Assembly (NCBI RefSeq): GCF_042682685.1
Contig: NZ_JBHUHX010000009.1
Location: forward strand, 55,805-119,804
Origin: Thiorhodococcus fuscus
Lineage (GTDB): Bacteria > Pseudomonadota > Gammaproteobacteria > Chromatiales > Chromatiaceae
Length of the DNA: 64,000 bases
Direction: 5' to 3'
In this document: positions 6,107 to 29,769 of the stretch, one piece after another
Numbering within the stretch: the stretch's first letter is position 1
Layout: each line of letters begins with the position of its first letter
Notes under the pieces: generated by a model
The model's input: only the letters and a program-made list of their open reading frames with translations
Told to the model about the DNA's origin: nothing
Databases searched by the model: none
Program-made: the position numbers and the translations under genes

Positions 6107-6759
6107 GGATGAATCTCGCGTCCGAGCCGGCGCAACAGTGGGCTGTAGCGAGGAAAATGGGCACGCAGGAATTCCATCTGATCGGCCAGCACGTTGCGAC
6201 CCATCAGATAGACGTACTCGGCATGCGTCGGCGTGAAAGGAACCGCCAGCAACTCCATTCCAGCGTCCTCGGGAGAGCGGCCGGCCTTGTAGTTGTTACA
6301 GCGAATGCAGGCGGTGACCAGATTGTTCCAGTGATCCTCGCCCCCCTTGCTGGAGGGGCGGACATGATCGCGCGACAGCAGACGCGGCGAGAACCGCTGA
6401 CCGCAGTACATGCACATGTGATCGTCGCGCTGAAACAGGGTGCGATTGGAGAGCGGGGGGACATAGTCGTCGCTCTGCAGTTTATTCAGCGAGCGATGGA
6501 GGCCGACCGTGGCGATGATGGAGTGAATCCGAAGCCGGCTTTGCGTTTGGGTCGCGGCATTGATGCCGCCACGCAACAGAAATAGAGGGTCACCGCACGA
6601 GTAGGCGACCTGACCGAGAAAATAGAGTCGGGCGGCGGTCCGGTAGTCCACCCATTCGAGTGGCATACCGGCCAAATCCGTTCGCAGTACCTGTTGGTTC
6701 AATGGCAACATAGTCGGAAGCGGCTCGGAATTTGCGAGCATCATACACGCTTGCAGCAC
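6103..6759 (-). CDS. HNH endonuclease family protein
   Basis: 218 aa. CMYCGQ..DHVRPSSKGG..WNNLVTACIRCNNYK is an HNH motif with Zn-binding Cys pairs. 4-bp overlap with the preceding gene. Confidence 0.7.
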   Translation of the reverse strand: MLQACMMLANSEPLPTMLPLNQQVLRTDLAGMPLEWVDYRTAARLYFLGQVAYSCGDPLFLLRGGINAATQTQSRLRIHSIIATVGLHRSLNKLQSDDYVPPLSNRTLFQRDDHMCMYCGQRFSPRLLSRDHVRPSSKGGEDHWNNLVTACIRCNNYKAGRSPEDAGMELLAVPFTPTHAEYVYLMGRNVLADQMEFLRAHFPRYSPLLRRLGREIHP

Positions 6760-7184
6760 CTGCGCAAACGATGCTCGTTGGATGATCGGAAGAGGATCCT
6801 GCTCCTGGAAGCAGACCCAGAACCTCTGATGAGATCGAGAATCGAACAGCCTCTAAATGGGGTTAACCACTTGATCATTCACACCCTCTGAAGGGTCCCG
6901 GTTGAATTCCGAGCCTGTCAAGCCAGCCGCTCCACCCGAGCCGGGAATATCACGCAACCAATTGATTTTCAGTTACCAAACGGAAGCTGGTTAATCTTTT
7001 ACCAGAACCGCAGGAGCGCTTGACTGACGCCAACTTGGGAGCGCCCACGAAAGGCTATCCCCAGACTTATCCACAGGCATTGTGAACAAATGAAGATCCT
7101 TCTCGCTCGCCGGAACTGGCAGACGCCCCTCTCTGGCACCAACGGAGGACCAACACGGCCCTTGAATGGAGACACAGCGACGAC

Positions 7185-9422: not shown

Positions 9423-9595
9423 TCGATGGATTCAGGTATTCTAATGGCCTGTGATCACAACCACTTCGGTCGCCGCGATCAGGTACCGAAGCATCCCGAT
9501 TCATCCCATTGCGGACCAGTTCTGGGCCCGACCCAGCCATCCAAGCGGCTGCGACGCGTGCTCGACCGTGTGCCAAGACCAAATCGTCAATCTGC

Positions 9596-11377
9596 ATGAA
9601 GCAAGACATCAAACATCTCATCGTCGCCGCGCTCCAGACCCTCGTCGACCAGGGTCAGCTCGATCTTCAAGAGTTGCCCGAGCCTCAGTTGGAACGCACC
9701 AAGGACGCCAGTCACGGCGATTTCGCCACCAATCTGGCGATGGTGCTCGCGAAGCTCGCCCGTACCAAGCCGCGCGATCTGGCGCAGCGACTGATCGAGG
9801 CATTGCCCGCCTCCCCGCTGATCGACAAGGTCGAAATCGCGGGCCCCGGATTCATCAACTTCTTCCTCGCCGAAGGCGCCTATCGCTCGGTCGTACCGCA
9901 GATCCTCACGACCGGACAGGCATACGGACTGAGCCAGGTCGGTGCCGGCAAGCGCGTGCAGGTGGAATTCGTCTCGGCCAATCCGACCGGTCCGCTGCAC
10001 GTCGGACACGGACGCGGCGCGGCCTACGGCGCGGTGGTGGCCGACCTGCTCGCTGCGGTCGGTTTCGACGTCCATCGCGAGTACTACGTCAACGACGCCG
10101 GCCGCCAGATGGATATCCTGGGCACCTCGGTCTGGTTGCGCTATCTGGAGCTGTGCGGCGAGGAGCTGCGCTTCCCGAGCAACGGCTACAAGGGCGACTA
10201 CGTCTGGGACATCGCCGCCACCCTGCACCGCGAGCACGGCGACGCCTACCGTGTGGACGCCGACCAGGTCTTCGCCGACCTCCCGGCCGACGCGCCGATC
10301 GACGGCGAACCGGAGAACGCGACCGGCGACAAGGAGGCCCATATCGACGGCCTCATCGCCGCTGCCAAGCGTCTGCTGGGCGACAACCGCTACCGCTATG
10401 TCTTCGAACTGGGGCTCAACACCATCCTCGACGACATCCGGGCCGACCTGTCGGAGTTCGGGGTCGACTATCAGGAATGGTATTCGGAGCGCTCGCTGAC
10501 CGAGAGCGGTGCGGTCAACCGGGCGATCGAGCGACTGCGCGCGAGCGATCACGTCTACGAACAGAATGGCGCGCTCTGGTTCCGCTCGACCGCGTTCGGC
10601 GACGAGAAGGACCGCGTGGTGGTGCGCGACAACGGCCAGACCACCTATTTCGCCTCCGACATCGCCTACCACATGGATAAGATGGAGCGTGGATTCGACC
10701 GCGTCATCGACATCTGGGGCGCCGACCATCACGGCTACATCCCGCGCGTGAAGGCCGCGCTGCAGGCGCTCGACAGCGACGCCGACCGGCTGGAGGTACT
10801 GCTGGTCCAGTTCGCCATCCTCTACCGTGGCGGCGAGAAGGCGCAGATGTCGACCCGCTCCGGCGAGTTCGTCACCCTGCGCGAGCTGCGCCAGGAGGTC
10901 GGACGCGACGCCGCTCGCTTCTTCTATGTGATGCGCCGCTGCGAGCAGCATCTGGACTTCGACCTCGACTTGGCCAAATCCGAGTCCTCGGACAACCCGG
11001 TCTATTACGTCCAGTACGCCCACGCGCGCGTCTGCAGCGTGCTGCGCCAGGCGGCCGAAAAGGGACTGGTGGTCGATCCGAGCCCAGGCACGACCAACCT
11101 GGAGCGACTGACCGAGGCGCACGAGGAGACCTTGCTGCGCACCCTCATCCGCTATCCGGAGGTCGTGGAGTCGGCCGCGCTCAAGGCCGAACCGCACCAG
11201 CTCACCCAGTATCTGCGCGAGTTGGCGAACGATTTCCACACCTATTACAACGCCCACCAGTTCCTGGTGGAAGACGGCGTCCTACGCGATGCCCGTATCA
11301 AGCTGATCCTGGCCGTGCGGCAGGTGTTGCGCAACGGCCTAGGGTTGATCGGCGTCTCGTCACCAGAGAGCATGTAA
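9596..11377 (+). CDS. argS: Arginine--tRNA ligase
   Basis: Class I HIGH motif [15 protein letters not shown] and the anticodon-binding C-terminal domain. Start taken at ATG 9596 (MKQDIKHL), internal to the ORF-track start. Confidence 0.9.
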
Positions 11378-13281: not shown

Positions 13282-14832
13282 GTGCCGACCAAGACAGCAA
13301 GCGGCAGCCCTAAAGCCTTCTCATACCTTCGCTTCTCCACTCCTGAACAAGAGCGCGGCGACTCCTTCCGCCGTCAGACATCCCTAGCCCAAGCCTGGTG
13401 CATCCGTCGCGGGATCGACTTAGACGAGTCCAGCTACCAGGACTTGGGTGTCTCTGCCTACAGAGGAGCCAATGCCGAGACAGGCAAGCTCGGAGAGTTC
13501 ATGGACGCAGTGAAGGAGGGACTGATCCCTCGGGGGTCTTATCTGCTGATCGAGTCCTTGGACCGTCTGTCGCGCATGACTCCACGGCGAGCCCTTCGAG
13601 TGCTTACCGACATCTGCGATGAGGGAATCGTCGTGGTCACACTGTCAGACAACAGGGAATACACCTCAGAGACACTGGATGCTGATCCTCTGTCGTTCAT
13701 GGTGGCATTCCTGGTGACCATGAGAGCCAACGAGGAGTCGGCAGCCAAGGCTAGAAGGATCAAGGCCGTATGGGACAACAAGCGCAAGCAGGCACTGGAG
13801 CAAGGTAAGGCGCTGACCAGTGTGACGCCTGGATGGCTGCAGTTGGTAGATGGTCAGTACCGGCTGATCCCTGAGAGAGCGGCTGTGGTCAAGCAGATCT
13901 TCGCCTGGCTGGCTGAAGGCAGAGGCTTGGATCAGATCGTCAGGATGCTGAACACCCAAGAAATCCCCACCTTCGGGAAGTCCGAATACTGGAGCAAGGG
14001 TTACATCGCCAAGCTGAGAGACAACCCGGCAGTGGTTGGAACGCTGATCCCTCACGTTACGAGCTATGACAAAGGCAAACGGATCAGGACGCCTCAAGAT
14101 CCTGTCCCTGGCTATTTCCCGGCAGCCGTAGACCAAGACACCTTCAACACAGTGGCAGCAAGAGCGGCGACCAGACAGCCGAAGGTCAACCACGGAAGGT
14201 CTGTCTCATTCCTTCTGGCCAGCTTGGCGAAGTGTCCCGTCTGTGGTTCGAGCATGACACGGACCCAGAAAGGCAAAGGCATGGGACCAGGAGACTCAAG
14301 GCTTGTATGCACCAAGGGCAAGGCCGGCGCTGGGTGTTCTTATCGGTCTGTGGTGGTCCAGCGAACCGAAGATGCCTTGAGACAGCATGCTTCCTTCATC
14401 GTTGGGACTGCTCCATCAGGAGATGCCTTGGTCGATTCCGAGCTGACGGACGTTGAAGTCAAACTCACTGGTATCGAAGAAGTCATGGGCCACATCATGG
14501 AGGCAATCGAGCATGGAGGAGGCAGGGAAAGTGGATCGATGCCGCTGCTGTCCAGCAGGCTGGCAGCCTTGGAGGAGGAAAGAAGGGCATTGGAGCAGAC
14601 GAGACGAGAGCTGATGGAGAAGCTCTCGACAATGGACAGCACCATGGTCGACAAGAGACTTGCACGACTGGAGGATGTCTTGCTGTCTGGAGACATCCAC
14701 GCAGGCAACACTCTACTGAGAGAGCTGTTCACGAGTGTGGTGGTCGACTATGAGCGCGGGGAACTGAGGCTGCAGTGGATACATGGAGGAGAGACTTGCA
14801 TCCCCTACGCAATGCCGCTAAAGAGCGCATAG
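13282..14832 (+). CDS. Large serine recombinase (resolvase-type catalytic domain + recombinase domain + zinc ribbon)
   Basis: 516 aa. N-terminal YLRFSTPEQ..GDSFRRQ catalytic region, then LIESLDRLSR, and a later CPVCGS..C zinc ribbon. GTG start. An 11-bp imperfect inverted repeat (ggaccccactt/aagtggtgtcc) lies at 13244-13278, just upstream. Confidence 0.85.
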   Translation: MPTKTASGSPKAFSYLRFSTPEQERGDSFRRQTSLAQAWCIRRGIDLDESSYQDLGVSAYRGANAETGKLGEFMDAVKEGLIPRGSYLLIESLDRLSRMTPRRALRVLTDICDEGIVVVTLSDNREYTSETLDADPLSFMVAFLVTMRANEESAAKARRIKAVWDNKRKQALEQGKALTSVTPGWLQLVDGQYRLIPERAAVVKQIFAWLAEGRGLDQIVRMLNTQEIPTFGKSEYWSKGYIAKLRDNPAVVGTLIPHVTSYDKGKRIRTPQDPVPGYFPAAVDQDTFNTVAARAATRQPKVNHGRSVSFLLASLAKCPVCGSSMTRTQKGKGMGPGDSRLVCTKGKAGAGCSYRSVVVQRTEDALRQHASFIVGTAPSGDALVDSELTDVEVKLTGIEEVMGHIMEAIEHGGGRESGSMPLLSSRLAALEEERRALEQTRRELMEKLSTMDSTMVDKRLARLEDVLLSGDIHAGNTLLRELFTSVVVDYERGELRLQWIHGGETCIPYAMPLKSA

Positions 14833-15583: not shown

Positions 15584-16276
15584 GAACGACGACACATCAC
15601 CCCGATAGGTCAGCCCAGGACGCTCTTGGTAGAGATTGAGAGTACCCGAGGCTGACTTGCCATTCAGCTGCTAATTCCCAATGCAGAAATTTGTGCATTG
15701 GAGACTGCCGGCAAGCGGGGCGGCAAACCCCGTAAGGATTACACCCTCAGCCGCAACCAGCAATCCAACAGGTTTTTCGCAGCTCAGAGAAAAACCCCTA
15801 GAGCGCACAGGCAAGGATGGTCGACTGGCTCAAGCTGGAGTCAGCCAAGGAATACCTGGCAGCCATGCGTCGTGCGCTCAAATGTGAGAAATCCTCACTT
15901 TTGACAACCACTCGGGGCAACGCTGGCCAGGGTCTCTTTTTGCTGGCTCGGCTAATGTCTATCGCCGATGTCGGTCCTTGGTTCCGATCACTCGGGACGC
16001 TTGTGCTACAGGCTCTTGAAGCTATCACCCTCTCAGCGGTGCCGTCCTTTCCCGGTCTAGCGACTCCTCGCACCTGCACTGCAGGAATGATCCATCCGGC
16101 AACACGCCAACTCTGATCATTCGATCAACAGCTCACACCAGGGCTACTCAGTCACACCAATCCATTCAGGTCAGCATCTACAGGCTTGCCAGCTAGCTTC
16201 CTTTTGTTCAGGGGAGTTGGTGGGCTAGCTGGATGGTGCTTGCCTGTGGGTGCTCACCTGAAAAGGAAACTGAACA

Positions 16277-17176
16277 ATGTCTATCACTGACAACATCAAC
16301 GAATACGAAGTCAAGAAGAACCGTAAGCGCCGCCGTGGTCCCAGCGATGGGAGAAGCCTCAAGGGAACCCACGACACAGCCACCGAGAAGCAGTACATGA
16401 TCGCAGGGTTCAGCGAGGAGTCGGCTAAGCGGATGATCAAACACCGTCACCGCTTCCCCTTCGAGCTGGACGGCACACAGCCAACGTATGACGCACGGAC
16501 GGTGTGGAGCTGGATCGGGAAGCCGCAAGGCAAATTTGCCAACTGGGTGAAGCGGGATCTCATGCCGACAACCAGTCACCTGATGTTTCAGTCACAGATT
16601 AGTGACCGAATCCTGACCCCCACAGGCAAACGAGGTGGGCAGCAGATTGACTACCTTCTGAGCCGCGATGTCGTGATGGATCTAGGCCAGCAAGCTAGAA
16701 CGCCTGAAGGGCAGGAGATCCGAGCCTACTTCCGTGACATGGAGAAGGCGGTCTACATCATGGGCTCGTTCCATCAATACCGAGTCTCTGACCTAGTGGA
16801 GCTGGACAAGACCCTGAAGCATTGGACACGCAAGACCTTCGGTTCTGCCGGTGCTAGCTGGGATGAGACGATCTTCAGTCTCGTTGCCCGTGCTGTCTCC
16901 GGCTATTCCGCTGGAGTGTGGAAGACTACATTCAATCGTCCAATCCGTGATGTCCTGAACATGAAAGACCTTGAGCGGTATGGGCGGTGCTTGGAGATGA
17001 TGATCACGCTATTGGATGCAGGGATCACCAACACCGACACGCTGTACGTCAAGGCTTCAGGCCGCTTCGGTGGAGATGTCGAGATTGGAGACTACATCAC
17101 TACAGTCGAGCAGACTGAACGCTTCCATCAAGCAACAGCCAAGAAGAAGGTCAAGGCACTGAAGGAGGTGGCGTGA
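16277..17176 (+). CDS. Phage antirepressor-like protein (ORF6N/ORF6C- or AntA-like)
   Basis: 299 aa. The central GQEIRAYFRDMEK resembles the KilA-C/ORF6C motif. Basic N-terminus. Confidence 0.4.
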   Translation: MSITDNINEYEVKKNRKRRRGPSDGRSLKGTHDTATEKQYMIAGFSEESAKRMIKHRHRFPFELDGTQPTYDARTVWSWIGKPQGKFANWVKRDLMPTTSHLMFQSQISDRILTPTGKRGGQQIDYLLSRDVVMDLGQQARTPEGQEIRAYFRDMEKAVYIMGSFHQYRVSDLVELDKTLKHWTRKTFGSAGASWDETIFSLVARAVSGYSAGVWKTTFNRPIRDVLNMKDLERYGRCLEMMITLLDAGITNTDTLYVKASGRFGGDVEIGDYITTVEQTERFHQATAKKKVKALKEVA

Positions 17177-17201
17177 CCATGACCCCCTGATAGAGGGGAC
17201 C

Positions 17202-17651
17202 ATGACGAGGGAGCGCTCTACAGACCATGAGCCCCCGGATAGGGAGACCATGGAGGCTGCCCTGGCTCCCGTCAGCCATGACCCCCCAGTCGAGGGGACC
17301 ATGGAACAACCGATCTCCGTCCCATCCGTCGAGGCACTGAGGCTCAATGCCCGTGGAACCAAGCGGTCCCTGGTCGACGCCTTTACCTGCCTGTTGAACC
17401 AGGGCATCTCCTTTCCCGAACACCTGGAGCCGTGGCACTGGGTCGAGGCTCTGGCTCCCAGGCTGAAGACCATGGCCAAGGAGCGCGGACTTCCATCCGC
17501 CCTGGAGCTGGCAAGCTTCTCGACACGCCATCGCAGCGCCTTTGCCGTCGACGAGATCGCCAGGGATTACCTGATCGACCTGAAGTCCTGGGCCAGACAC
17601 CCCAAGCGACACCATCCCCACCAACCACTGCAGGCCGTCCCTGCGTCCTGA
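17202..17651 (+). CDS. Hypothetical protein
   Basis: 149 aa ORF in the same orientation as the element's operon. No recognisable motif. Confidence 0.3.
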   Translation: MTRERSTDHEPPDRETMEAALAPVSHDPPVEGTMEQPISVPSVEALRLNARGTKRSLVDAFTCLLNQGISFPEHLEPWHWVEALAPRLKTMAKERGLPSALELASFSTRHRSAFAVDEIARDYLIDLKSWARHPKRHHPHQPLQAVPAS

Positions 17652-18827: not shown

Positions 18828-20846
18828 GTGGATGGGACTCTGCGGGAGGATTCAACAAGAATGAATCAAGAGACAATGACCCTCTACAAGCAACAACCTC
18901 ACGTCCTCCCTGAAGTCTTCGCCGCCACCATGCGCGAGCACTGGGAGACCTCCCTCGGCAACGTCCCAAGCCCAGCCCTGCAAGCCCTGTGGCGAACCAT
19001 GGCCAAGGCATTCAATGCGTCCATCAATGACGAGGAGCATCGCTGGACTGTGCTCCAACCGCCCACGGGCACCGGCAAGACTCAAGGTGCCTGCCTATTC
19101 TCGGCCATGACAGCCAAGAAGAACGAAGGTCTCTTCATGGACGAGCGTGTCGGAATCCTGATCGTGACCCGGCTCATCAGTCAGGCCAACGAGATCGTGG
19201 AAACCGTCAACCGCATGGCCGGCTTCGAGTGTGCCGCAGCCAAGCATTCCGAGTCCGACCTCACGGCGGAAGAGGCTCAAGCCTTCGATGTTCTGGTGGT
19301 CACTCATGCCGCCTATACCAACGCCCTGGAAGGGCTCTGCAAGGATGACAGGAGCCGCTGGGATGCCCTGGTCCGCTGGGAGCATGGCTACCGGAAGCTG
19401 ACCATCGTGGATGAGGCCATCGCCAACATCGTGGAGGAGTACAACGTCAAGGCGGACGATGTCCGACTGACCCTGGCCTTCATCACCCCGGACATCCGCC
19501 ACCGCTACCCGAATGAGGTCGCTGCCGTGGAGCTGGTCAGGGATCTGCTGGAGCGGATCGCCGAGATGCACAAGGATGCCGAGGGCGACGAGGACGACAC
19601 CACCTCCAGGTTCACCGAGTCCAAGGTGCTCTGGACACCCGAGCGCAAGGCTCAACTCCTCGGCTCTGATGCCTCCATCTCCCTCGACAACCTCCGTGCG
19701 GCCATGAAGGAGGTCCGCTATGACCTGATCGGCAGCAGACGGGAGTCCAAGGACGACCGCAAGCGTCAGGCTGAACGGTTCGACAAGATCCTCCGCAGCA
19801 TCGAGGCGATCATGAACAGGTTCATGTGGTACGCGAAGAAGGGCTTAGAGTACAGCTTCAACGGATCCGAGCTACTGATCCCGGATGACCTCCCGTCCCC
19901 CGTGGTCCTGGATGCGACGGCTCGACAGAACTTCCTCTGGACCCTCCTGGAGGACCGAGCGGTCATCCTTCCCGTGCCACCCAAGACTCGGAACTACCGC
20001 AACGTCACGCTCCATGTGGCTCGGGCGAGAGGGACCGGGAAGACGGCGATGAAGGAGAAGGGCAAGGATCGGATTCCCCGACTCATCCATCAGCTCCAGC
20101 AAGATCTGGATCCAGGCAGGAAGGTCTTCGTCGCTCTGCACAAGGACATCGAGCACCATGCCGTCAAGTACGACCCTGGCTTCTCTGAGTGGTCTGTCGG
20201 TCACTGGGGAGCCATCGACGGTCGGAACGATTGGATGACCTATGACACTGCCGTCATCTTCGGCCTTCCATACCGGGACACTATCTGGGCGACCAACGCC
20301 TTCTTCGCCACCCAAGGTGTCCAGAGCAACGAGTGGCTGAAGAACCCCGAGTGGAAGGGCTACAAGGATGTCCGGGAGGAGATGCAGATCAGACAGGTCT
20401 GTGTGTCCGTGGTCCAGGCCGTCAACCGAGTCCGCTGCCGGAAGGTGACCGATGCGGATGGAAGCTGCGATCAGTCGGATGTCTTCATCATCCTGCCGAC
20501 CGGGAAGATGGGAGAGCAGATGCTGAAGGCTCTGGTGGAGGAGATGCCAGGGATCCAGGTCAAGGGTTGGGACTTCGAGTTGGATGGAGCCAAGCCAAGG
20601 CAACGGATCAAGAAGGGCTCAAGTCATGAGGCGCTCCTGACTCTGATGCAGAACGCGCTGCCTGGAGATTACTCGGTGAGCCACTTGAACACCGAGCTGG
20701 GCCTAGCGCCCAAGGGGCTTGAGAAGATCAAGGCTGCCCTTCGCGATCCAAGCCACCCTCTGACCCGAGCCCTGCTGGAGGTCGGGGTCAAGGTTCAACA
20801 CTCTGGTGCCAAGCGAGGAGCAAGGACGACGCTCATCAAGACGTGA
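18828..20846 (+). CDS. SF2 (DEAD/DEAH-like) helicase-family protein, phage/island-encoded
   Basis: 672 aa (alternative start at 18861, MNQETM). Walker A LQPPTGTGKTQ, DEAH-like box LTIVDEA, a late QAVNRVRCRK resembling helicase motif VI (QxxGRxxR). Confidence 0.55.
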   Translation: MDGTLREDSTRMNQETMTLYKQQPHVLPEVFAATMREHWETSLGNVPSPALQALWRTMAKAFNASINDEEHRWTVLQPPTGTGKTQGACLFSAMTAKKNEGLFMDERVGILIVTRLISQANEIVETVNRMAGFECAAAKHSESDLTAEEAQAFDVLVVTHAAYTNALEGLCKDDRSRWDALVRWEHGYRKLTIVDEAIANIVEEYNVKADDVRLTLAFITPDIRHRYPNEVAAVELVRDLLERIAEMHKDAEGDEDDTTSRFTESKVLWTPERKAQLLGSDASISLDNLRAAMKEVRYDLIGSRRESKDDRKRQAERFDKILRSIEAIMNRFMWYAKKGLEYSFNGSELLIPDDLPSPVVLDATARQNFLWTLLEDRAVILPVPPKTRNYRNVTLHVARARGTGKTAMKEKGKDRIPRLIHQLQQDLDPGRKVFVALHKDIEHHAVKYDPGFSEWSVGHWGAIDGRNDWMTYDTAVIFGLPYRDTIWATNAFFATQGVQSNEWLKNPEWKGYKDVREEMQIRQVCVSVVQAVNRVRCRKVTDADGSCDQSDVFIILPTGKMGEQMLKALVEEMPGIQVKGWDFELDGAKPRQRIKKGSSHEALLTLMQNALPGDYSVSHLNTELGLAPKGLEKIKAALRDPSHPLTRALLEVGVKVQHSGAKRGARTTLIKT

Positions 20847-21556
20847 TCAGTTATCCCCCTGGAGACCCCTAAAGGAATACTTTAGAGATGTTGGGGGGGT
20901 ATTCGCATGGCCAAGGACGGCCAGGATCCACCTGATCCAAGCTTGACAAAGAGACTCCACTCCTTCGTCGCTACGTGCGTCGACCACCATCAGCCATCAC
21001 CCTGGACCACCTTCCTCCGGGCTTCGCCCTGATCGACATAACAGAGGATGGAAGGGAAGATCTTCATGGTCCCCTTCCACCTCAGCCGGCCTCAAGCTGC
21101 CTCAAGCCTCTCGGCTCGGAGTCCGATCAAGCTGCCTTCCTCGCTGATCGAGCCGGATCCCTTGGCTGTCCAGCTTTCTATGTCGATCAGTCGAGAGAAT
21201 CCGACTGAGCCAAGGAAGACCGTGGTCCCCTGATCTAGGGGGGCATGGCGCTGCTCTGGGCTTGTTGTCATCCGCTGCCGAGAGGCTTGAGCCCTCGCTG
21301 CGCCTAATCCTGCTGTCCTGGTGGTGCGAAGGTCGGCGGATCTTCTGGCTGTCTCTCTTCTTGTATCTGTGATTTTTCCAGAGGGACAGCTCTAGTCCCT
21401 CCATACCGCCTCCCTCTGCCTGCCTCTCTACCACCGAAGGTCTTCGTCTCCTTCGCTCTTGCACCCCACCCGCTGCCTGTCGGCCTTCGACAGTGACGCC
21501 CTTCGCCTCCCAGACAGCCGATCTGGTCTCCCTCATCCTCACTGGAGACAGACACC

Positions 21557-21751
21557 ATGAACGACATGACCTCTGCCCTTGGAGACGCCCTCGCCACTTG
21601 GGCGAGCGGTCGGCACATCAGCCGTGAGATCCGCAACAGCCTGCTTGAGTCCGGCTACAGCGCCGACGACATCGCAATGATGGAACTCCATCACTTCAAG
21701 CCCGCACACCTCCACCTTTCGCGTACCTCCCAGACTGGAGAGAACCAATGA
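21557..21751 (+). CDS. Hypothetical small protein
   Basis: 64 aa. 4-bp overlap with the downstream Bro-N gene. Confidence 0.3.
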   Translation: MNDMTSALGDALATWASGRHISREIRNSLLESGYSADDIAMMELHHFKPAHLHLSRTSQTGENQ

Positions 21752-22707
21752 CCGCACTGTCCACCTTCACCTTCCCCGTCACTGCAGCCCAGGTCCGTAC
21801 CGTCACTGACGAGAATGGCGATCCATGGTTCGTCGCCAAGGATGTGGCCGATGCCCTTGGGTATGAGAACACGATGGAAGCGGTGCGCTACCACTGCAAA
21901 CGCGCTAAGGCGTTGAATACATTGAAGCAGAGCAAAATGCTCTCCTTGCATCCGCACACGAAGCTCATCCCCGAGGCCGACATCTACCGTCTGGTGATGC
22001 GCTCCAAGCTCCCGTCCGCCGTTGAGTTCGAGGAATGGGTTGTCGAGGAAGTCCTGCCCTCCATCCGCAAGACTGGCAGCTACTCCATGCAGCCTGCTCT
22101 CCCTGACTTCACCGATCCGGCAGCCGCCGCTGAAGCATGGGCGAAGGAGTACCGGGACAAGATGGTCATGATCGACTTCGCCAAGAAGCAGGCAGCCCAG
22201 CTCACCGAGCAGGCCCCGCTGGTGGACTTCGCCGAGGCTGTCGTCGCCGACAGTGAGGACTGCTACATCCGCGATGCAGCCAAGACGGTCGATGTCGCCC
22301 CCTTCCGGCTCTACGAGATCCTCCGTCAGTACAAGTGGATCCCTGAGTCCGATGTCTACCGGATGGTGATGCGTTCCACCCTCTCGGCTGCCTCTCGATC
22401 ACTGAGCTGGTGGGCTCTCGTCACGACAAGGTCAAGCAAAGCATCGAGCGCCTCGCAAACCGTGGTGTTATCACTCAACCTCCAATGGAGGATGCGTCCT
22501 ACAAAGACGGACCCGGCAGCACCATCGTCACCTAGCTCTTCATCTTCTCCGGTGAGCAAGGCCGGCTGGACTCCTTCTCGGTGGTCGCCCAGCGGTTGCC
22601 CACACCGAGCGTCTCACCTGCATGCTGGATATAGACGAAGTTCAAAGCCACCGGTTTGGTGGGTTTGGACCTCGCGGGTCGATGCCGCCGAAGCACAAAA
22701 CCTATAA
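21748..22707 (+). CDS. Bro-N domain phage antirepressor, apparently frameshifted into a Rha-like segment
   Basis: N-terminal Bro-N signature: GDPWFVAKDVADALGY..EADIYRLVMRSKLP.A.EFE.WV...VLPSIRKTGSY. After ~aa 230 the frame becomes low-complexity, while another frame encodes SELVGSRHDKVKQSIERLANRGVI (Rha-family motif). Confidence 0.55.
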   Translation: MTALSTFTFPVTAAQVRTVTDENGDPWFVAKDVADALGYENTMEAVRYHCKRAKALNTLKQSKMLSLHPHTKLIPEADIYRLVMRSKLPSAVEFEEWVVEEVLPSIRKTGSYSMQPALPDFTDPAAAAEAWAKEYRDKMVMIDFAKKQAAQLTEQAPLVDFAEAVVADSEDCYIRDAAKTVDVAPFRLYEILRQYKWIPESDVYRMVMRSTLSAASRSLSWWALVTTRSSKASSASQTVVLSLNLQWRMRPTKTDPAAPSSPSSSSSPVSKAGWTPSRWSPSGCPHRASHLHAGYRRSSKPPVWWVWTSRVDAAEAQNL

Positions 22708-23640
22708 ATCGTCGGTTTTCGGACCTTGTGGCGTAAATTTAATAAACTAATCATAGGCTTACAATGAATCCCTCGGTGAAAGCGAGGCAGCAAATCACCT
22801 CAATGAGGACGAAGCACAAAACCTGCAAATCGCCGGTTCTGGAAATTGTGATGTGAATTTGATAAGTGAATCAGGGCTTTACGGGGCGATCCTTGGTAGC
22901 CACAAGGCGGAAGCCAACCGGGTTCAAGCGCTGTTCAGCAAGGATTTTCACGGCAACTCTCGCGAATCACGAGGGTCGCGGTTGCGTTCGGATACCAAGC
23001 TGAATCCCCGAGGCTGACATCTACCGTCTGGTGATGAAGTCCCGCTTCCCGTCCGCTACGCGGTTTTAGGAGTGGGGTGTCGATCCGTTCGACCCCCTTG
23101 GCGAGCGGGAAAGGGGCCGCATCCGTTGTGACCCCTGGCGCGTGGATAGGGTGGACGGCAAATTTCCTCCCCCTCTGAAAAGACCAAGCGGATAACCTCG
23201 ATTATGGTTCGCCTGACTGGAAGGGGGTTAATCCGATTAACACCCCTGGGGGAAATCAAGAGGTTACGGTGCTCACCGAGCAGGGTCTCTACTTCTTCGT
23301 CGCCCGCTCCGACAAGCCCTGCGCTCGGCCCTTCCAGAAGTGGAAGGGTACGAAACCGATTCGTACCCCTGGTGGAGCCCAGAAGGTGACCAAATCGTTG
23401 GTTCATGGACCCAAGGGTGGAAGGGGGCGAGCCTCGATTCCTGGCGTTGTATGTTGCACTGGTGCCGAGCCACTCCGATGCCCACAACATGACCACCAGG
23501 CTGGACACGGACGAAGTACAAAACCTGCAAATCCCAGGTTTGCTCACTCGCGGCGTGAATTTGATAAGCGAATCATGGCTTTACGAAGCGATCCTTGGTA
23601 GCCACAAGGCGGAAGCCAAGCGGTTCAAGCGCTGGGTCAA
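22690..23640. repeat. Array of degenerate direct repeats made of Bro-N antirepressor gene fragments
   Basis: Three copies of a 70-125 bp unit beginning gaag(c/t)acaaaacct(g/a)(c/t)aaatc.. at about 22690, 22811 and 23512. Copies 2 and 3 are ~90% identical over ~125 bp. Additional Bro-N-like peptides occur at 22990-23050 (ADIYRLVMKSRFPSA) and 23204-23350 (LTEQGLYFFVARSDKPCARPFQKW). Confidence 0.55.
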
Positions 23641-23995
23641 GCGTGAAGTCCTGCCCACCATCCGCAAGACCGGCAGCTATTCGCTCCAGCCTCAACCCCA
23701 GATCCCACAGTCCTTGCCCGAGGCACTCCGTCTCGCCGCCACGCTGGCCGAAGAGAAAGAGCGCCTCGCCCAGGAGAACGCGCAGCTCACCCACATCACG
23801 TCCGTCCAGAACGACATGCTTGAAGCCACTGCCCCCAAGGCTGCCCTTCTCGATCAAGCGTTCGAGGATGACCGCTGGGTTAACGTGACCGACTTCGCCA
23901 GCCGGCTGGAAGGCGTCAACCGCAACAGCCTGACTTCAGTGATCCGGGTTATAGGAGGCGCGGTTGCAGTTAGCTATCAAGCCACTCGTTTGTAA
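23405..23995 (+). pseudogene. Bro-N C-terminal half fused to a KilA-C-like tail (antirepressor remnant)
   Basis: ESWLYEAILGSHKAEAKRFKRWVKREVLPTIRKTGSYSLQ is the distal half of a Bro-N domain without its N-terminal half. Preceded by repeat debris. Confidence 0.45.
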
Positions 23996-25037
23996 CTTCA
24001 CGGTACTTGCCGATGAAGTCCTCACGACCACAAAGCCGAGGTTCTGTCAGCAAATGGTAGGCTCTATTTATGGCCTGCCCGATCTCTTCCCGAGTCAACT
24101 CTGCACAGAACACCGAGAAGAAATCAGATAGATCGACAACAGCAAGATCGAAGCTCAGGTGCTCGATGAAATCTATTAGTTTGGACGCGGGATATAGATC
24201 GCTATCACCCCGGACATCGGAAGCGAATATTACGTATTTTGGCAGATTGCCCCGAACCGCTTTCTTTTGAAAATCACTAAGTCGGTTCTTCCAATCATCC
24301 CTTACCGTTACCTCGAATGCCGCTATTAGCAAGTCCTCTCTGTATTCCTCAATATCTCCAGTTGCCCCATCGAATTTGTCAGATGCATGCGGGTGATGTG
24401 TAATAACTCGATGCCCATATCGCTTTCGATGGACTTCAATGAAGGCGGCAACCAAGAACTGCTGGATGTGACCCTCTGAGGGTACTTTCATCAGCCTTTC
24501 GCAGAGACGAAGACTTCTCGCATACGACAAATAACCCCTTGGTAAAACTGGCAGTGCTTGCGGAATCACCTTGGATTGTTCAAGTCTCCATACAATGTGA
24601 TTGACAAGCGCTTCCCTTTCTGCTGGCTGCAGGCATTCAAGGTTGCTCACGAATGATGCAAAGCGTATATCAGCCGAGAGATCAAACTGGCGCACCGCTC
24701 CCTTCCAGCCTAAATTTTCACCAAATGCCGTTATGCTGTTGTGAAGTGTGACATGCCGTTGAGTCAGCTCCCCTGCGAGTCTCTTATCACCATACTTACC
24801 TCGCGCCCCTACTGGGACGGTCTTAAAATCCCACTCTTCATCAATCAACGAATATGCTGCCAGGAAAGCACAAGCAAGTCTCACGCTTCCGCGCTGCGAT
24901 TCTATATGGCTATCAAATATCGCTTTGACATTTCTAGGCGCAGGCTCTCCAAGAACCTCTCCTTCTGATAGGCGATCAAGCCTATCAAGAATAATATCTA
25001 CAGCCTTCTCTACACTTTCATTTCGTCTTCGTTTCAT
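23970..25037 (-). CDS. Putative Type II restriction endonuclease (partner of the adjacent C5-MTase)
   Basis: 355 aa, markedly low-GC ORF. 4-bp overlap with the methyltransferase gene. No motif assignable by eye. Confidence 0.5.
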   Translation of the reverse strand: MKRRRNESVEKAVDIILDRLDRLSEGEVLGEPAPRNVKAIFDSHIESQRGSVRLACAFLAAYSLIDEEWDFKTVPVGARGKYGDKRLAGELTQRHVTLHNSITAFGENLGWKGAVRQFDLSADIRFASFVSNLECLQPAEREALVNHIVWRLEQSKVIPQALPVLPRGYLSYARSLRLCERLMKVPSEGHIQQFLVAAFIEVHRKRYGHRVITHHPHASDKFDGATGDIEEYREDLLIAAFEVTVRDDWKNRLSDFQKKAVRGNLPKYVIFASDVRGDSDLYPASKLIDFIEHLSFDLAVVDLSDFFSVFCAELTREEIGQAINRAYHLLTEPRLCGREDFIGKYREVTNEWLDS

Positions 25038-26083
25038 AGCGCCAATTCCATTTGATTGAAATCCTCATTTGCAGGCACAAGACCCGAAGGAGATTGAACT
25101 CCATTGGCCTGAGAATACAAAGCCGCGCCTATGGCAAATGCCAGATCAGGTGGAACTGCGTCTCCCACTTGCTTGTACTGAGACGAGCGTTTGCCAGAGA
25201 AAGCCATCTCGCTAGGAAAGGTCTGGATTATGGCGCACTCTTCCACGCTAAGGCGACGAGCACCAGGCACTATACCTTGCCACGGCTCTCCACCAGCGCG
25301 GAGATGAGAGTGGTACTTCGGGGCAATATTTTCCGTATCTATCCAGTGAGTCTTGTATCCGCCCGATGATGCCAGGATTGTGTGGCAGGGTCCGTTGGGA
25401 TCGATAGGGCGTCCACCTCCATTATAGACATGCCCAGCGTATGGACTCGGGCGTAAGTCTGGATACTTAGCGAAACGCACAGGGCAGTTCGGTGCTTCAC
25501 CGATAGGATCCGGGCCAAGCCTACTAGCCGCACTTACGTGCGGTAGCGATGTGTTTTCGCCATGGGTTGGCGTAGGTAGAAGTAAGCGATGTGAGCGGGA
25601 GCCGAGTATAAATAGTCGCCTTCTCTTCTGCGGCACGCCATAATCCGCAGAGTTAATTACAGACCAGTTAATGTGATATCCACATGCAGCCAGCCTTGAA
25701 AGGACTGACTCAAAATACGGGCGAGCCTTCTTGAGTGTAAGACCAGGAACATTTTCCATGAGGAAATACGCTGGCCGAACTTCGTTGAGACATCGGATGA
25801 ACTCTGGAATCATATCCCTTTCGTCCGCATGCCCTTTGCGCAACCCACCGATTGAAAAAGGTTGGCACGGAGGTCCGCCAACGACAATGTCAACTCGGCC
25901 TCGAAATGGCGAGAAGTCAATCTTGCGAACATCTTCGTTGAAGTGGTTTGAGCTGCCATGGTGCAAGGCGTATGTATCCATAGCATCTCGGTTGATCTCG
26001 ACATTTGCCACAATATCGAAACCAGCCCTCTGGATGCCTAAAGAAAGACCGCCTGGCCCTGAGAATAGGTCGATGCCTTTCAC
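25034..26083 (-). CDS. DNA (cytosine-5)-methyltransferase
   Basis: 349 aa. Motif I DLFSGPGG, motif IV GGPPCQPFS, motif VI ENV, motif VIII QKRRRLF. Confidence 0.9.
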   Translation of the reverse strand: MKGIDLFSGPGGLSLGIQRAGFDIVANVEINRDAMDTYALHHGSSNHFNEDVRKIDFSPFRGRVDIVVGGPPCQPFSIGGLRKGHADERDMIPEFIRCLNEVRPAYFLMENVPGLTLKKARPYFESVLSRLAACGYHINWSVINSADYGVPQKRRRLFILGSRSHRLLLPTPTHGENTSLPHVSAASRLGPDPIGEAPNCPVRFAKYPDLRPSPYAGHVYNGGGRPIDPNGPCHTILASSGGYKTHWIDTENIAPKYHSHLRAGGEPWQGIVPGARRLSVEECAIIQTFPSEMAFSGKRSSQYKQVGDAVPPDLAFAIGAALYSQANGVQSPSGLVPANEDFNQMELAL

Positions 26084-26496: not shown

Positions 26497-26793
26497 ATGA
26501 AATCCCATGAACAGCTCCTCGCCCCTGGCTCCACCGAGAAGACCGTCGCCACTGCCGACCTGAACATCCGCAGCACGATCAGTCTGGATGTTTACGCCGG
26601 AACCAGATCCTGGATGTGGAAGGTCTACCTCAACAAGGAGGAGCTGACGAGCCAGAGCGGCTACTCCACCCACGCCTTGGCCAGCCAGGCCGGATTGGCG
26701 GAATGGGACCGGATCGTCTCGGCGGTCACCGGCTCGAACATCAAGGCCATCGAAGCCAATGTCGCTGCCGCTGAGAAGGAGCCGTCCGCATGA
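26497..26793 (+). CDS. Hypothetical protein upstream of the replication ATPase
   Basis: 98 aa. ATG at 26497. Its stop overlaps the downstream start (ATGA). Confidence 0.35.
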   Translation: MKSHEQLLAPGSTEKTVATADLNIRSTISLDVYAGTRSWMWKVYLNKEELTSQSGYSTHALASQAGLAEWDRIVSAVTGSNIKAIEANVAAAEKEPSA

Positions 26794-28406
26794 ACCCAAG
26801 CCCCCTCCTTGCTGAGGGGGTGTCCAACACCTCCAGGCACACTTCCGTATCCAACGCTGTTGGAGCCTCAGCATCTAGCGCTGTTGAAGCCTCTGCGCCC
26901 AGCACAGCCGAAGCCCCCGACACTCCGCTGCCGGACTTCACCCCAGTCGCCACCATCCGCCGACCCGATGGTCAAGAGACCCAAGTCGTCCGTGACCGCT
27001 GGGGCAGCCATCTGCTGCACTCTCCCGACAACCCCGGATGGGTCCGGGTCCATCGAGACGGAGCGGGCAACTGGATCGAGCGCGAGACCGGGATCGTCCA
27101 TGCCACCGATGGCAGCGTGATCCACCCCAAAGACATCTTCGGCGCATCATCCGAGGGATTCATCGACGTGAACACCAAGGCAGCCTCGACCATCAAGCCC
27201 GACCCCGTGCGTTGGCTTTGGCCCGGATGGCTCGCGGCCGGGAAGGTCCACCTCCTGGCTGGAGCACCAGGCACAGGGAAGACCACCGTCAGCATGGCTC
27301 TGGCGGCGACGGTCTCGCTTGGAGGCAGATGGCCCGATGGAACCGAAGCCCTCCAAGGTGATGTCCTGATCTGGTCCGGGGAGGACGACATCAAGGACAC
27401 CCTGGTCCCGAGGCTCATGGCTGTGGGGGCTGATCTCAATCGCGTCCACTTCATCACGACCACCAACACCGAGGATGGCCTGAGAGCCTTCGATCCAGCC
27501 GTCGACATCGACCTCCTGGCCGACAAGATGGCCTGGATGGATCCTTGCCCTTCCTTGCTGATCGTCGATCCCATCGTGGCAGCGGTCTCTGGAGACAGTC
27601 ACCGCAACGCCGAGGTCCGGCGAGCCTTGCAGCCCTTGGTTGACCTGGCCGCTTCCCGTCACTGCGCTGTTCTGGGGATCTCCCACTTCAGCAAGGGCAG
27701 CTCGGGACGAGATCCGATTGACCGGGTGACCGGATCGCTGGCCTTCGGTGCCCTGGCGCGGGTGGTCATGGCAACCGCTCGGCTGCCGGACGACCACCCC
27801 AGTGGAGTGAGGCGGATCCTGGCCCGAGCCAAGAGCAACATCGGCGAGGATGGTCAGGGGTTCGGATACGACCTGGAGCTGGAGGAACCGGTCGAGGGAA
27901 TCGAGGCGACCCGAGTCCTCTGGGGCGAGATGCTCGAAGGCAGCGCCAGGGAACTCCTGAGCATGGCCGAGCCGGTCCCTGATGGCGAGGGTGAGAGCAA
28001 CGCCGATGTCGAGTCCTTCGTTCGCGGGCTCCTGGCCGATGGTCCAGTCTCCGCCAAGCAGATGAAGGCCGATGCCGATGGAGCCGGCTACTCCTGGGAT
28101 CGGGTGAAGCGAGCCGCCAGCCGGATCGGAGTGGAGCGGAGGAAGGAGGACTTCAGCAAGGGCTGGGTATGGTCGCTCTCCACGGACCATGACGGTCGAT
28201 CAAGAACGGTCGCTCTGGAGGAGCTGATCCGGGATGCCCTGGCACAGGGAGAACGCACGGCCCAGGAGATGAAGGTCATGATCGAGGAAGCCGGCTATTC
28301 CTGGGATCAAGGCAAGCGAACCGCCGCCAAGCTGGGCATCGAGCGCCAAAAGTCCGGTTACCAGGGACCGTGGACCTGGACGCTGGGAGAGGCTGCCGCC
28401 GCCTAG
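26790..28406 (+). CDS. RepA-like AAA_25/RecA-fold replication ATPase of integrative elements, with two tandem ~57-aa C-terminal repeats
   Basis: 538 aa. WLAAGKVHLLAGAPGTGKTTVSMALAATVSLGGRWPDG (Walker A in AAA_25 context), LLIVDPI (Walker B). The C-terminus has a duplicated module ..GAGYSWDRVKRAASRIGVERRK.. / ..EAGYSWDQGKRTAAKLGIERQK.. Confidence 0.75.
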   Translation: MNPSPLLAEGVSNTSRHTSVSNAVGASASSAVEASAPSTAEAPDTPLPDFTPVATIRRPDGQETQVVRDRWGSHLLHSPDNPGWVRVHRDGAGNWIERETGIVHATDGSVIHPKDIFGASSEGFIDVNTKAASTIKPDPVRWLWPGWLAAGKVHLLAGAPGTGKTTVSMALAATVSLGGRWPDGTEALQGDVLIWSGEDDIKDTLVPRLMAVGADLNRVHFITTTNTEDGLRAFDPAVDIDLLADKMAWMDPCPSLLIVDPIVAAVSGDSHRNAEVRRALQPLVDLAASRHCAVLGISHFSKGSSGRDPIDRVTGSLAFGALARVVMATARLPDDHPSGVRRILARAKSNIGEDGQGFGYDLELEEPVEGIEATRVLWGEMLEGSARELLSMAEPVPDGEGESNADVESFVRGLLADGPVSAKQMKADADGAGYSWDRVKRAASRIGVERRKEDFSKGWVWSLSTDHDGRSRTVALEELIRDALAQGERTAQEMKVMIEEAGYSWDQGKRTAAKLGIERQKSGYQGPWTWTLGEAAAA

Positions 28407-28419
28407 CGGTTAGCCGCCA

Positions 28420-28610
28420 AAGGGAGCGGAAGGGGGCGAAGAAGTGGACTCAAGTCTACGTGCTCCCTTCCGCGCTCTTTGCTCCCTTCTGCACTCTTTG
28501 GCTGCATTCTTCCGCATTCTTTGGCGCGACCACGGCTCAAAGGGAGCAGAAGAGTGCAAGGGAGCAGAAGGGAGCACTGGAATTTGAGTGCATCCTTCGC
28601 CTTCTTCGGT
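28420..28610. repeat. Iteron-like direct repeats inside a long imperfect palindrome (candidate origin/regulatory region downstream of repA)
   Basis: Direct repeats gcactctttgg / gcattctttgg / gcattcttcc, flanked by inverted arms gtgctcccttc..tgctcccttctgcact and agtgcaagggagcagaagggagcac. Confidence 0.35.
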
Positions 28611-29211: not shown

Positions 29212-29769
29212 ATGTCAGGACAGCAGGTCGGATATATCCGGGTCTCTTCGGTCGATCAGAACAGCGACAGACAGTTGGTCGATGTCGAGCTGGACAAGAC
29301 CTTCACCGAGAAGGCATCGGGCAAGAACACCGCAGGTCGGCCAATCCTGGCTCAGTGCCTGGCATATGTGCGCGAAGGCGACACCATCCACGTCCACAGC
29401 ATCGACAGGCTGGCCCGGAACCTCGCCGAGCTGCAGTCCCTGGTGGACGATCTGGTGAGCTGTGGCGTGTCGGTCCAGTTCCACAAGGAGAACCTGACCT
29501 TCCAGGCTGGAGCGGGTGATCCGATGCAGCGGCTGATGCTGCAAATGATGGGAGCCTTCGCCGAGTTCGAGCGGTCGATGATCCGAGAGCGCCAGCGGGA
29601 AGGGATCGCGGAAGCGAAGCGCCAGGGCAAGCAGATCGGGAGAGCCAGGAAGCTGGACGATGATCAGATTGCAGCGGTCAGGGAACGCATCGCCAAGGGT
29701 GAGAACAAGAAGGCGATTGCTGCCGATCTGGGGATCTCAAGGCAGACGCTGTACAGCGCCTTGGGCTGA
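29212..29769 (+). CDS. Small serine recombinase (resolvase/invertase family) with C-terminal HTH
   Basis: 185 aa. GYIRVSSVDQNSDRQ catalytic serine region, DRLARN, C-terminal HTH ISRQTLYSAL. Confidence 0.9.
   Translation: MSGQQVGYIRVSSVDQNSDRQLVDVELDKTFTEKASGKNTAGRPILAQCLAYVREGDTIHVHSIDRLARNLAELQSLVDDLVSCGVSVQFHKENLTFQAGAGDPMQRLMLQMMGAFAEFERSMIRERQREGIAEAKRQGKQIGRARKLDDDQIAAVRERIAKGENKKAIAADLGISRQTLYSALG

Follow-up and report, generated by a model that had tools for sequence, protein, structure and literature searches.

The chromosome of the purple sulfur bacterium Thiorhodococcus fuscus (Chromatiaceae) contains a 2.2-kb stretch in which one half-intact antirepressor gene is followed by at least ten broken and reshuffled pieces of similar genes. 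This stretch, here called the Bro zone (21748-23995), lies in a genomic island within the 64 kb of DNA that we analyzed (the window, whose positions are used throughout). We consider it likely that an antirepressor gene was broken here by illegitimate recombination, that pieces of other Bro-network sequences were joined to it and two of them amplified, and that the copies then decayed. A six-frame search with a profile built from 119 homologues found fragments of the Bro-N, KilAC (ANT) and Rha domains on the plus strand of the Bro zone and none elsewhere in the 64 kb, and a chance origin of the array pieces is excluded.

The first piece, F1 (Table 1), is the only one with an intact 5′ end and a start codon. 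Its Bro-N domain scores 103.5 bits with Pfam (E 1e-29, residues 15-104) and its KilAC domain, which like that of the last piece, F7, is truncated, scores 28.6 bits as ANT (profile positions 2-53 of 108); the AlphaFold model of F1 has a predicted local distance difference test (pLDDT) value of 83. The open reading frame (ORF) that contains F1 (21748-22707, 319 amino acids [aa]) is identical to T. fuscus protein P0001, annotated as a ‘BRO family protein’. Past 22341 it encodes a Bro-N scrap, IPESDVYRMVMRS, and then reads out of frame over a Rha-like piece. A first-pass annotation of this DNA had described a Bro-N gene drifting out of frame into a Rha-like segment, and this description was correct, with the switch at 22341 and the Rha piece in another frame. 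A 3-nt microhomology (ATC) marks the join between the broken KilAC and the scrap F2. The assignment of the next piece as Rha-like rests on its matches to PHROG 15709 (E 3.4e-12) and PHROG 63, ‘anti-repressor Ant’ (E 4.5e-3), and on a 30-aa stretch that is 40% identical to the Rha part of a sister island described below; with Pfam Phage_pRha it scores 13.7 bits (E 0.094), below the cut-off.

Two short head-to-tail arrays make up most of the remainder. The unit of the first encodes the segment LDxDEvQNLQIxGxxxRGVNLISESGLYxAILGSHKAEA of a Bro-N type represented by protein P0122, and carries frameshifts and stops. Its copy F4 is 65% identical to P0122 over 52 aa (E 5e-15), scores 19.0 bits with Pfam Bro-N, which is below the cut-off, and matches several anti-repressor PHROGs (E 1.5e-5); F3 has no Pfam Bro-N or PHROG match, and a further copy of the unit sits inside F7. 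The repeat family that the first-pass annotation had reported is real, although the pair 22807-22933 (in F4) and 23509-23634 (in F7) is 85% identical over 127 nt rather than about 90%, and 22621-22680 adds a fourth copy, which is partial; the copy in F3b (22689-22760) is 76-78% identical to those of both F4 and F7. The repeats do encode Bro-N, but its middle (profile positions ~33-89) and not strictly the distal half. Between the arrays lies F5, which is 75% identical to F1 and 84% identical to positions 9827-9894 of the sister island, and scores 19.5 bits with Pfam Bro-N, again below the cut-off, but like F4 matches several anti-repressor PHROGs. The second array consists of ‘u’ units of a third Bro-N type, of which u1 and u2 are 123 nt apart; u1, also designated F6, is recognized by Pfam Bro-N (27.8 bits, E 4e-6) and by a PHROG (E 2e-9), and u2 by its match to protein P0003 (E 0.002). 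The two peptides that had been picked out as Bro-N in other frames, ADIYRLVMKSRFPSA (23004-23083, in F5; PHROG E 2.8e-5) and LTEQGLYFFVARSDKPCARPFQKW (in u1), were both confirmed by these searches, and the ‘mini-duplication’ reported alongside them is present, although what it represents is the beginning of the following unit of the array, 123 nt further along.

The array ends in F7, as noted initially, with a Bro-N half (39.2 bits) fused to a KilA-C-like tail of about 45 residues. This Bro-N lacks its first strands and shows changes in invariant residues (GEPWF to GEPRF); it matches PHROG 130 (E 7e-34) and is 47% identical to P0122. The ANT match (12.6 bits, E 0.17, profile positions 4-45) is supported by alignment to P0122. 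F7 stops where G+C falls and a restriction-modification (R-M) cassette starts; the last 12 codons of its ORF read into this foreign DNA, and the six-frame search found no remainder of KilAC downstream of the cassette. The 196-aa product is identical to a T. fuscus protein annotated as a ‘Bro-N domain-containing protein’. When the fragments are compared with Pfam models, as had been proposed, the Bro-N cut-off (PF02498, 25.6 bits) is passed by F1, F7 and u1, whereas Phage_pRha (PF09669, 29.9 bits) is not reached and KilAC (PF03374, 25.3 bits) is matched in part only. Autocorrelation of the sequence gave peaks at 120 nt (z 4.0), 123 nt (z 3.2), 244 nt (z 2.65) and 702 nt (z 7.7); Tandem Repeats Finder reported no repeats, the copies being too diverged. 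A hairpin in F4 and F7 (CCTTG-7-CAAGG, with one paired change in F3b) was dropped for want of conservation in the P0122-type relatives L002 and L003. Beyond what had been noted before, the sequence indicates two short head-to-tail arrays, truncation of the last ORF by the R-M cassette and probable decay after loss of function.

What might the gene have looked like before it was broken? Contig 16 of Imhoffiella purpurea AK35 (L001) carries a sister island with genes for a tyrosine integrase, a 300-aa Ant-like protein (82-91% identical at the nucleotide level to window 16275-17169) and a 708-aa helicase-like protein, then a small ORF homologous to window 21557-21751, a Bro-N-Rha-KilAC frame and a KilA-N ORF. 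The frame (9593-10705) occupies the same place as the Bro zone and is uninterrupted, encoding 370 aa with Bro-N, Rha and a complete KilAC domain (10271-10702). The protein recorded for it, P0005, comprises only the 234-aa Rha and KilAC part. The window matches this DNA at 80% in Bro-N (9601-9916 of the sister island) and at 95% in the linker and the N-terminal half of KilAC (10271-10513), up to 22341, where the Imhoffiella sequence goes on YKWINESNEPYQ... and the window YKWIPESDVYRM..., with the crossover within a shared ATC. Because a 95% match up to this point is followed by a jump at ATC into a Bro-N segment, we conclude that illegitimate recombination occurred between antirepressor paralogues. 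In addition, a 10-nt direct repeat, CCTCAGCTCC, stands on either side of the Rha module of the sister island and is present just once in the window, which suggests that gain or loss of modules at very short repeats recurs in this slot. The sister island carries no fragment array like that of the window. Its intact gene, the ATC breakpoint and the CCTCAGCTCC repeat all support the earlier proposal of recombination among antirepressor paralogues.

A plausible course of events can be outlined from these comparisons. At first, as in I. purpurea, a single antirepressor gene (Bro-N, linker, KilAC) would have lain after a small ORF. Illegitimate recombination with a different Bro-N sequence at 3 nt of microhomology would then have broken this gene in mid-KilAC at 22341, and later joins may have added pieces from at least three other Bro-network lineages, namely a Rha N-domain, a P0122-type Bro-N and a ‘KG..TPGG’-type Bro-N. 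Replication slippage or unequal crossing-over probably amplified two of the pieces locally into the head-to-tail arrays (periods of 121 and 123 nt), after which all copies would have decayed without selection on the protein. Last, the low-GC R-M cassette would have replaced the 3′ end of the final copy.

The number of fragments is unusual. A survey of 82 other Bro-N loci together with the window, which takes in the Imhoffiella island as well, found 72 loci with one Bro-N match, eight with two and three with three; the window alone has four at the survey threshold, in addition to weaker ones. The differences between copies (91 in four copy pairs) are spread over codon positions 1, 2 and 3 as 26, 31 and 34, with no strong excess at the third position, and this even spread fits drift of at least one member of each pair without selection at the protein level. 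Together with the stops, the frameshifts and the lost invariant residues, it supports pseudogene decay of the array copies. No sigma-70-like promoter is predicted within 20.8-24.2 kb, array included. F1 (Bro-N, half of KilAC and a junk tail), and perhaps F7, could still yield protein, and the rest would be non-coding debris. For annotators, the public BRO names are a warning, in that they mask an out-of-frame junk fusion of 319 aa and a doubly truncated ORF.

Several points weigh against this interpretation. There is only one sister island, which ends 0.9 kb past the gene, and the variability of the slot rests on two genomes, T. fuscus being represented by one strain. Searches of genomes, metagenomes and viral contigs found no further sister island with the helicase-like and 299-aa proteins. 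The counts in the codon-position test are small (91 differences), the NCBI record lists both F1 and F7 as ordinary genes, and only position, the KG/TPG motif and a palindrome identify the heavily decayed u0 and u(-1). Finally, such palindromes persist in F3a, u0 and u(-1) even though the protein signal has gone, which neutral decay does not predict.

The palindrome recurs widely among Bro-N genes. It was first seen in u1 and u2, which begin with hairpin-forming palindromes of different arms (23222-23247 and 23346-23368), and unrelated metagenomic Bro-N genes are palindromic at the same position, yet with other arms and other amino acids. In all, a conserved, co-varying DNA palindrome occupies this fixed position, 19-21 codons upstream of the IPExDxYRL motif, in about 145 Bro-N genes that are unrelated and come from phages and metagenomes (L084-L163, L004-L083), across phyla; its arms are 8-14 bp and its centre 3-9 nt long. 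Folding energy in 33-nt windows averages -10.4 kcal/mol at the site and about -3 to -6 elsewhere across 74 distinct viral Bro-N genes; in an independent set of 66 metagenomic genes (G+C 30-68%) it likewise drops at the site, to -8.6 as compared with -4.7 on average overall. When synonymous codons are shuffled, folding of the site weakens from -13.9 to -9.4 kcal/mol, and in 29 of 79 genes none of 40 shuffles folds as well as the native sequence. Covariation was measured in an alignment of 41 distinct 33-nt segments that was anchored on the protein and made without regard to folding: at register i+j=34, pairs make up 67.3% (58.0±1.1% after shuffling) and double-change cells number 64 (30.6±4.4 after shuffling). 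Register i+j=36 is raised as well and all others are at shuffle level, which controls for relatedness. With 26 sequences centred on their own folds, an alignment biased towards structure, both partners vary in 12 of 13 pairs (score 0.527 against 0.215, reached in 0 of 500 shuffles).

Is this a structure of the DNA or of the messenger? The sense and antisense strands fold equally well (-12.2 and -12.7), and, when pairs are defined strand-symmetrically, G-T (85) does not exceed A-C (106). This lack of strand asymmetry makes dyad symmetry of the DNA at least as likely as an mRNA hairpin. An RNA-level reading was set aside, as a first count that favored it (G-T 73, A-C 19) was biased because an RNA folding program had chosen the hairpins, and the unbiased tests show no strand asymmetry. 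No Rfam family corresponds to the palindrome (20800-24200 and 20 phage Bro-N loci scanned), and our full-text literature searches found no description of it. In the AlphaFold model of F1, the segment is a loop, predicted with low confidence, that connects helix 42-49 to strand 72-75; judging from this model, it would code for disordered surface and so leave room for a constraint at the nucleotide level. The bacteriophage HK022 protein Roi, which is said to bind a site in its own gene, was considered as a parallel and dropped, as it has no Bro-N domain by profile.

That the fragments have been kept, or generated, because of this palindrome, either as sites that bind or titrate Bro-N (decoy, self-immunity) or as the footprint of recombination, is to our minds improbable. 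The palindrome is real across the ~145 genes, its position is included in nine of about 12 pieces (F1, F3a, F3b, F4, u(-1), u0, u1, u2 and F7), and F3a (-18 kcal/mol) and u(-1) contain little else. Each u unit starts with it; the four u palindromes share the centre TCCG(A/T)T (ACCGAT in u2) and differ in their arms in a paired way, and there are perfect hairpins at 23329-23348 and 23346-23368. The foot of the palindrome is 0-2 nt away from the junction between units (between TGG and AAGGG), and u1 and u2 meet within a perfect 8-bp palindrome. The relatives L002 and L003 have palindromes of 12 and 14 bp at the same place, and there is a precedent, by analogy, in a cognate DNA element within a gene of a related family (10.1101/2020.07.13.199331). 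However, the junctions u0-u1, u1-u2 and F5-u(-1) are all copies of one type, so that they amount to roughly one event (p about 0.03-0.05) and their coincidence with the palindrome is only suggestive. Moreover, folding is weak for the palindromes of F3b, F4 and F7 (-6 to -8 kcal/mol), template switching in quasi-palindromes can create paired changes in the absence of selection, and the window copies escape the covariance model R1, which was built from phage copies. We prefer breakage, amplification and neutral decay as the account of the array. As a tentative broader suggestion, the palindrome would function as DNA, serving as a cognate binding or self-recognition site, as a fragile site or as both, and the array would be a set of palindrome-centred fragments that it produced or retained. 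It may prompt template switching, so that the gene family breaks there, or fragments may persist as a functional site.

It is very improbable that the fragments are silent cassettes for an expressed antirepressor, used in programmed variation by conversion of the pilS or vls kind, by a shufflon or by a diversity-generating retroelement (DGR). Partial, promoterless copies of one domain do stand beside a presumably expressed copy, and the island has a resolvase/invertase-type gene. Against this, all copies are direct and the minus strand has no Bro-N, ANT or Rha signal, which excludes inversion; the island has no reverse transcriptase and the mismatches are not adenine-specific; the copies belong to different Bro-N lineages, are 40-60% apart from F1, which is too far for conversion, and have stops and indels; and the sister island is without such an array. 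A DGR reading of the 127-nt pair was rejected for the same lack of reverse transcriptase, its differences hitting all bases and including indels, and an invertible-segment shufflon because, besides the silent minus strand, inverted repeats are only short and weak. Equally hard to credit are assembly or sequencing artefacts as the source of the frameshifts and joins: the sequence comes from a draft contig (130,944 bp) and repeats that are 75-88% identical can confuse assemblers, but long neighboring genes are intact (672, 538 and 781 aa), the fragments differ by rearrangement and 15-25% substitution rather than by homopolymer indels, and the repeats are too short and too diverged for mis-joins. 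An insertion sequence (IS) or transposon, the alternative raised in the first-pass annotation, and likewise a miniature inverted-repeat transposable element, were rejected because 20.8-24.0 kb contains no transposase ORF and no IS-like terminal repeat, the repeats being direct and homologous to Bro-N coding sequence; searches of the phage and plasmid collections gave no DNA match above 80%.

Table 1. Features of the Bro zone and of the surrounding island in the T. fuscus window
Feature	Position	Strand	Description
F1	21748-22341	+	Complete Bro-N, linker, N-terminal half of KilAC (ANT)
F2	22339-22392	+	Bro-N scrap IPESDVYRMVMRSTLSAA; 78% identical to F1 21967-22020; hidden Markov model E 4.5e-8
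Rha-like fragment	22393-22610	+	N-terminal, SITELVGSRHDKVKQSIERLANRGVI..., other frame; in-frame stop 22533-22535
First head-to-tail array	22618-22940	+	Unit ~121 nt
F3a	22618-22680	+	Partial unit
F3b	22683-22803	+	Unit of first array
F4	22804-22940	+	Unit of first array
F5	22982-23083	+	F1/L001-type Bro-N scrap (LRSDTKL / IPEADIYRLVMKSRFPSATRF*EW); +1 frameshift, TAG stop 23067-23069
u(-1)	23073-~23110	+	‘KG-x5-TPGG...FQKW’ Bro-N segment
u0	~23098-23220	+	As u(-1)
u1	23221-23343	+	As u(-1)
u2	23344-~23404	+	As u(-1)
F7	23405-23959 (ORF 23405-23995)	+	P0122-type Bro-N, coiled coil, first ~45 KilAC residues
Palindromes	22640-22670, 23073-23096, 23112-23136, 23222-23247, 23346-23368, 23521-23541
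Large serine recombinase	13282-14832		Island gene 1
299-aa Ant-like protein	16277-17176		Matches anti-repressor PHROGs
Small ORFs			After the 299-aa Ant-like gene, before the 672-aa gene
672-aa DEAD-like/helicase-like protein	18828-20846
28-nt repeat, fourth copy	21220-21247		CCATGACCCCCTGATAGAGGGGACCATG family; upstream of antirepressor operon
Small ORF, 64 aa	21557-21751	+	Stop overlaps Bro-N gene start (ATGA)
Bro zone	21748-23995	+
Low-GC (46-52%) two-gene cassette	23970-26083	-	Truncates F7; genes overlap by 4 nt
AAA_25 primase/helicase-like protein	26790-28406
Small resolvase	29212-29769		Resolvase/invertase-type gene

The whole 64 kb is chromosomal, with feoB, priA, argS, mdh, rtcB, rnf and pst-type genes. 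The island, which to judge from its genes is probably integrative and satellite-like, extends over ~16.5 kb (~13.2 to 29.8 kb) of lower G+C between the malate dehydrogenase gene mdh (which ends at 13158) and rtcB. The 64-aa ORF whose stop overlaps the start of the Bro-N gene has no match in Pfam or PHROG and is 31% identical (E 4e-10) to the same-position ORF of the Imhoffiella island; by this sequence match it is a conserved upstream partner of the antirepressor gene. One gene of the cassette that truncates F7 encodes a C5 cytosine methyltransferase (Pfam DNA_methylase, E 1e-68; TIGR00675) and the other a 355-aa ORF with no family match in Pfam, PHROGs or NCBIfam, presumably the restriction enzyme, so that the two would form a recently acquired type II R-M system with an uncharacterised nuclease. 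The large DEAD/helicase-like genes at the same position in the two islands (18828-20846, 672 aa, in the window; 6101-8227, 708 aa, in Imhoffiella) differ, being about 30% similar in patches. They match no family beyond a weak DEAD match, and scans of genome, metagenome and viral collections with peptide patterns gave no close relative.

The non-coding DNA of the island has features of its own. A 28-nt repeat of the CCATGACCCCCTGATAGAGGGGACCATG family occurs at 17177-17204, 17225-17252 and 17276-17303, spaced 48-51 nt around the start of ORF 17202-17651, and again upstream of the antirepressor operon; a similar sequence is found at the same relative place in the Imhoffiella island (~8914-8942), and the repeat is probably an operator shared by the 17177-17303 region and the antirepressor operon. 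This upstream copy is flanked, in a 700-nt non-coding stretch, by a perfect 15-nt complementary pair (21101-21115 and 21277-21291, 161 nt apart; chance expectation about 2e-4). A reading of this pair, with a partial third copy at 22375-22391, as P4-like seqA/CI/seqC was unsupported, the pair not being conserved in Imhoffiella. Upstream of the small ORF, the two islands share a conserved motif in non-coding DNA, TATCTGTGnnTTTTCnAGnGGACA...GTCCCTCC, which includes a small GGGAC/GTCCC hairpin and occurs once in the window (21365-21405) and twice in the Imhoffiella island (9066-9105 and 9163-9200). Just 3′ of the AAA_25 gene (28420-28600) are direct repeats of the AAGGGAGCAGAAG type and a 35-nt imperfect inverted repeat, which may be the replication origin of the island.

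Tandem duplication of Bro-N coding segments head to tail, as in the window, is found elsewhere too. In P0003 the duplication is in frame and yields a single protein with two Bro-N domains, whereas the window units are internal, decayed segments of 121-123 nt; L009 (1879-4726) has three separate Bro-N matches in different frames, and L022, a 3.1-kb metagenomic contig, has three near-complete copies in different frames (45-968). The baculovirus repeated ORFs (the bro family; PMC3230853) have the same N-terminal domain family and likewise vary in copy number by duplication, loss and recombination, but they are dispersed and mostly intact paralogues in large genomes of eukaryotic viruses, in contrast to the compact fragment run of T. 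fuscus.

A close parallel is provided by satellites. Gram-negative phage-inducible chromosomal islands (PICIs) have a four-zone layout of integration, Bro, replication and late genes, in which the Bro zone is described as ‘dynamic’, with domain-swapping proteins (PMC10111431). These and P4-like satellites show the module order that we observed, integration, Bro-network genes (Bro-N, ANT/KilAC, Phage_pRha, KilA-N) and replication, the T. fuscus island running from the recombinase through its two Bro-network loci (16277-17176 and 21748-23995) to the AAA_25 gene. Domain swapping is also alike, with Bro-N and KilAC here and Bro-N, Rha and KilAC followed by KilA-N in the sister island. The T. fuscus island differs in having a large serine recombinase instead of a tyrosine integrase with AlpA (the sister island has a tyrosine integrase), and neither AlpA nor captured late genes were found among its genes; its host is a purple sulfur bacterium and not an enterobacterium; and its Bro zone is mostly pseudogenised, with head-to-tail fragment arrays. 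No C4/isrK-type immunity RNA was detected in 20800-24200 or in 20 phage Bro-N loci (E <= 5), nor any other known RNA family (Rfam, E <= 1) in 20800-24200. On this likeness of gene content, the T. fuscus feature would be the decaying Bro zone of a satellite-like island, a known phenomenon, and the array is a clear if unsurprising example of Bro-zone turnover in satellites and prophages, with datable breakpoints, microhomologies and an intact sister gene.

The palindrome could matter more than the array. The KilA-N-type defence protein BstA has a short cognate DNA element, aba, that overlaps its own gene, acts as DNA and, like the palindrome, differs in sequence between homologues (10.1101/2020.07.13.199331); aba lies at the gene start, has terminal direct repeats and a tested function, whereas the Bro-N palindrome lies in mid-domain and is a candidate element. 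In P4, as summarised in PMC10111431, eta and CI-seqA place a regulatory nucleic-acid element within Bro-network coding sequence, like the palindrome, which in contrast to CI-seqA RNA shows no RNA-type G-U bias. If functional, the palindrome may help to explain the ready recombination and module swapping of Bro-network genes. It is a concrete object for asking how Bro-network proteins recognise DNA, and offers a way into why these genes are recombination-prone, a question that the satellite literature has left open (PMC10111431).

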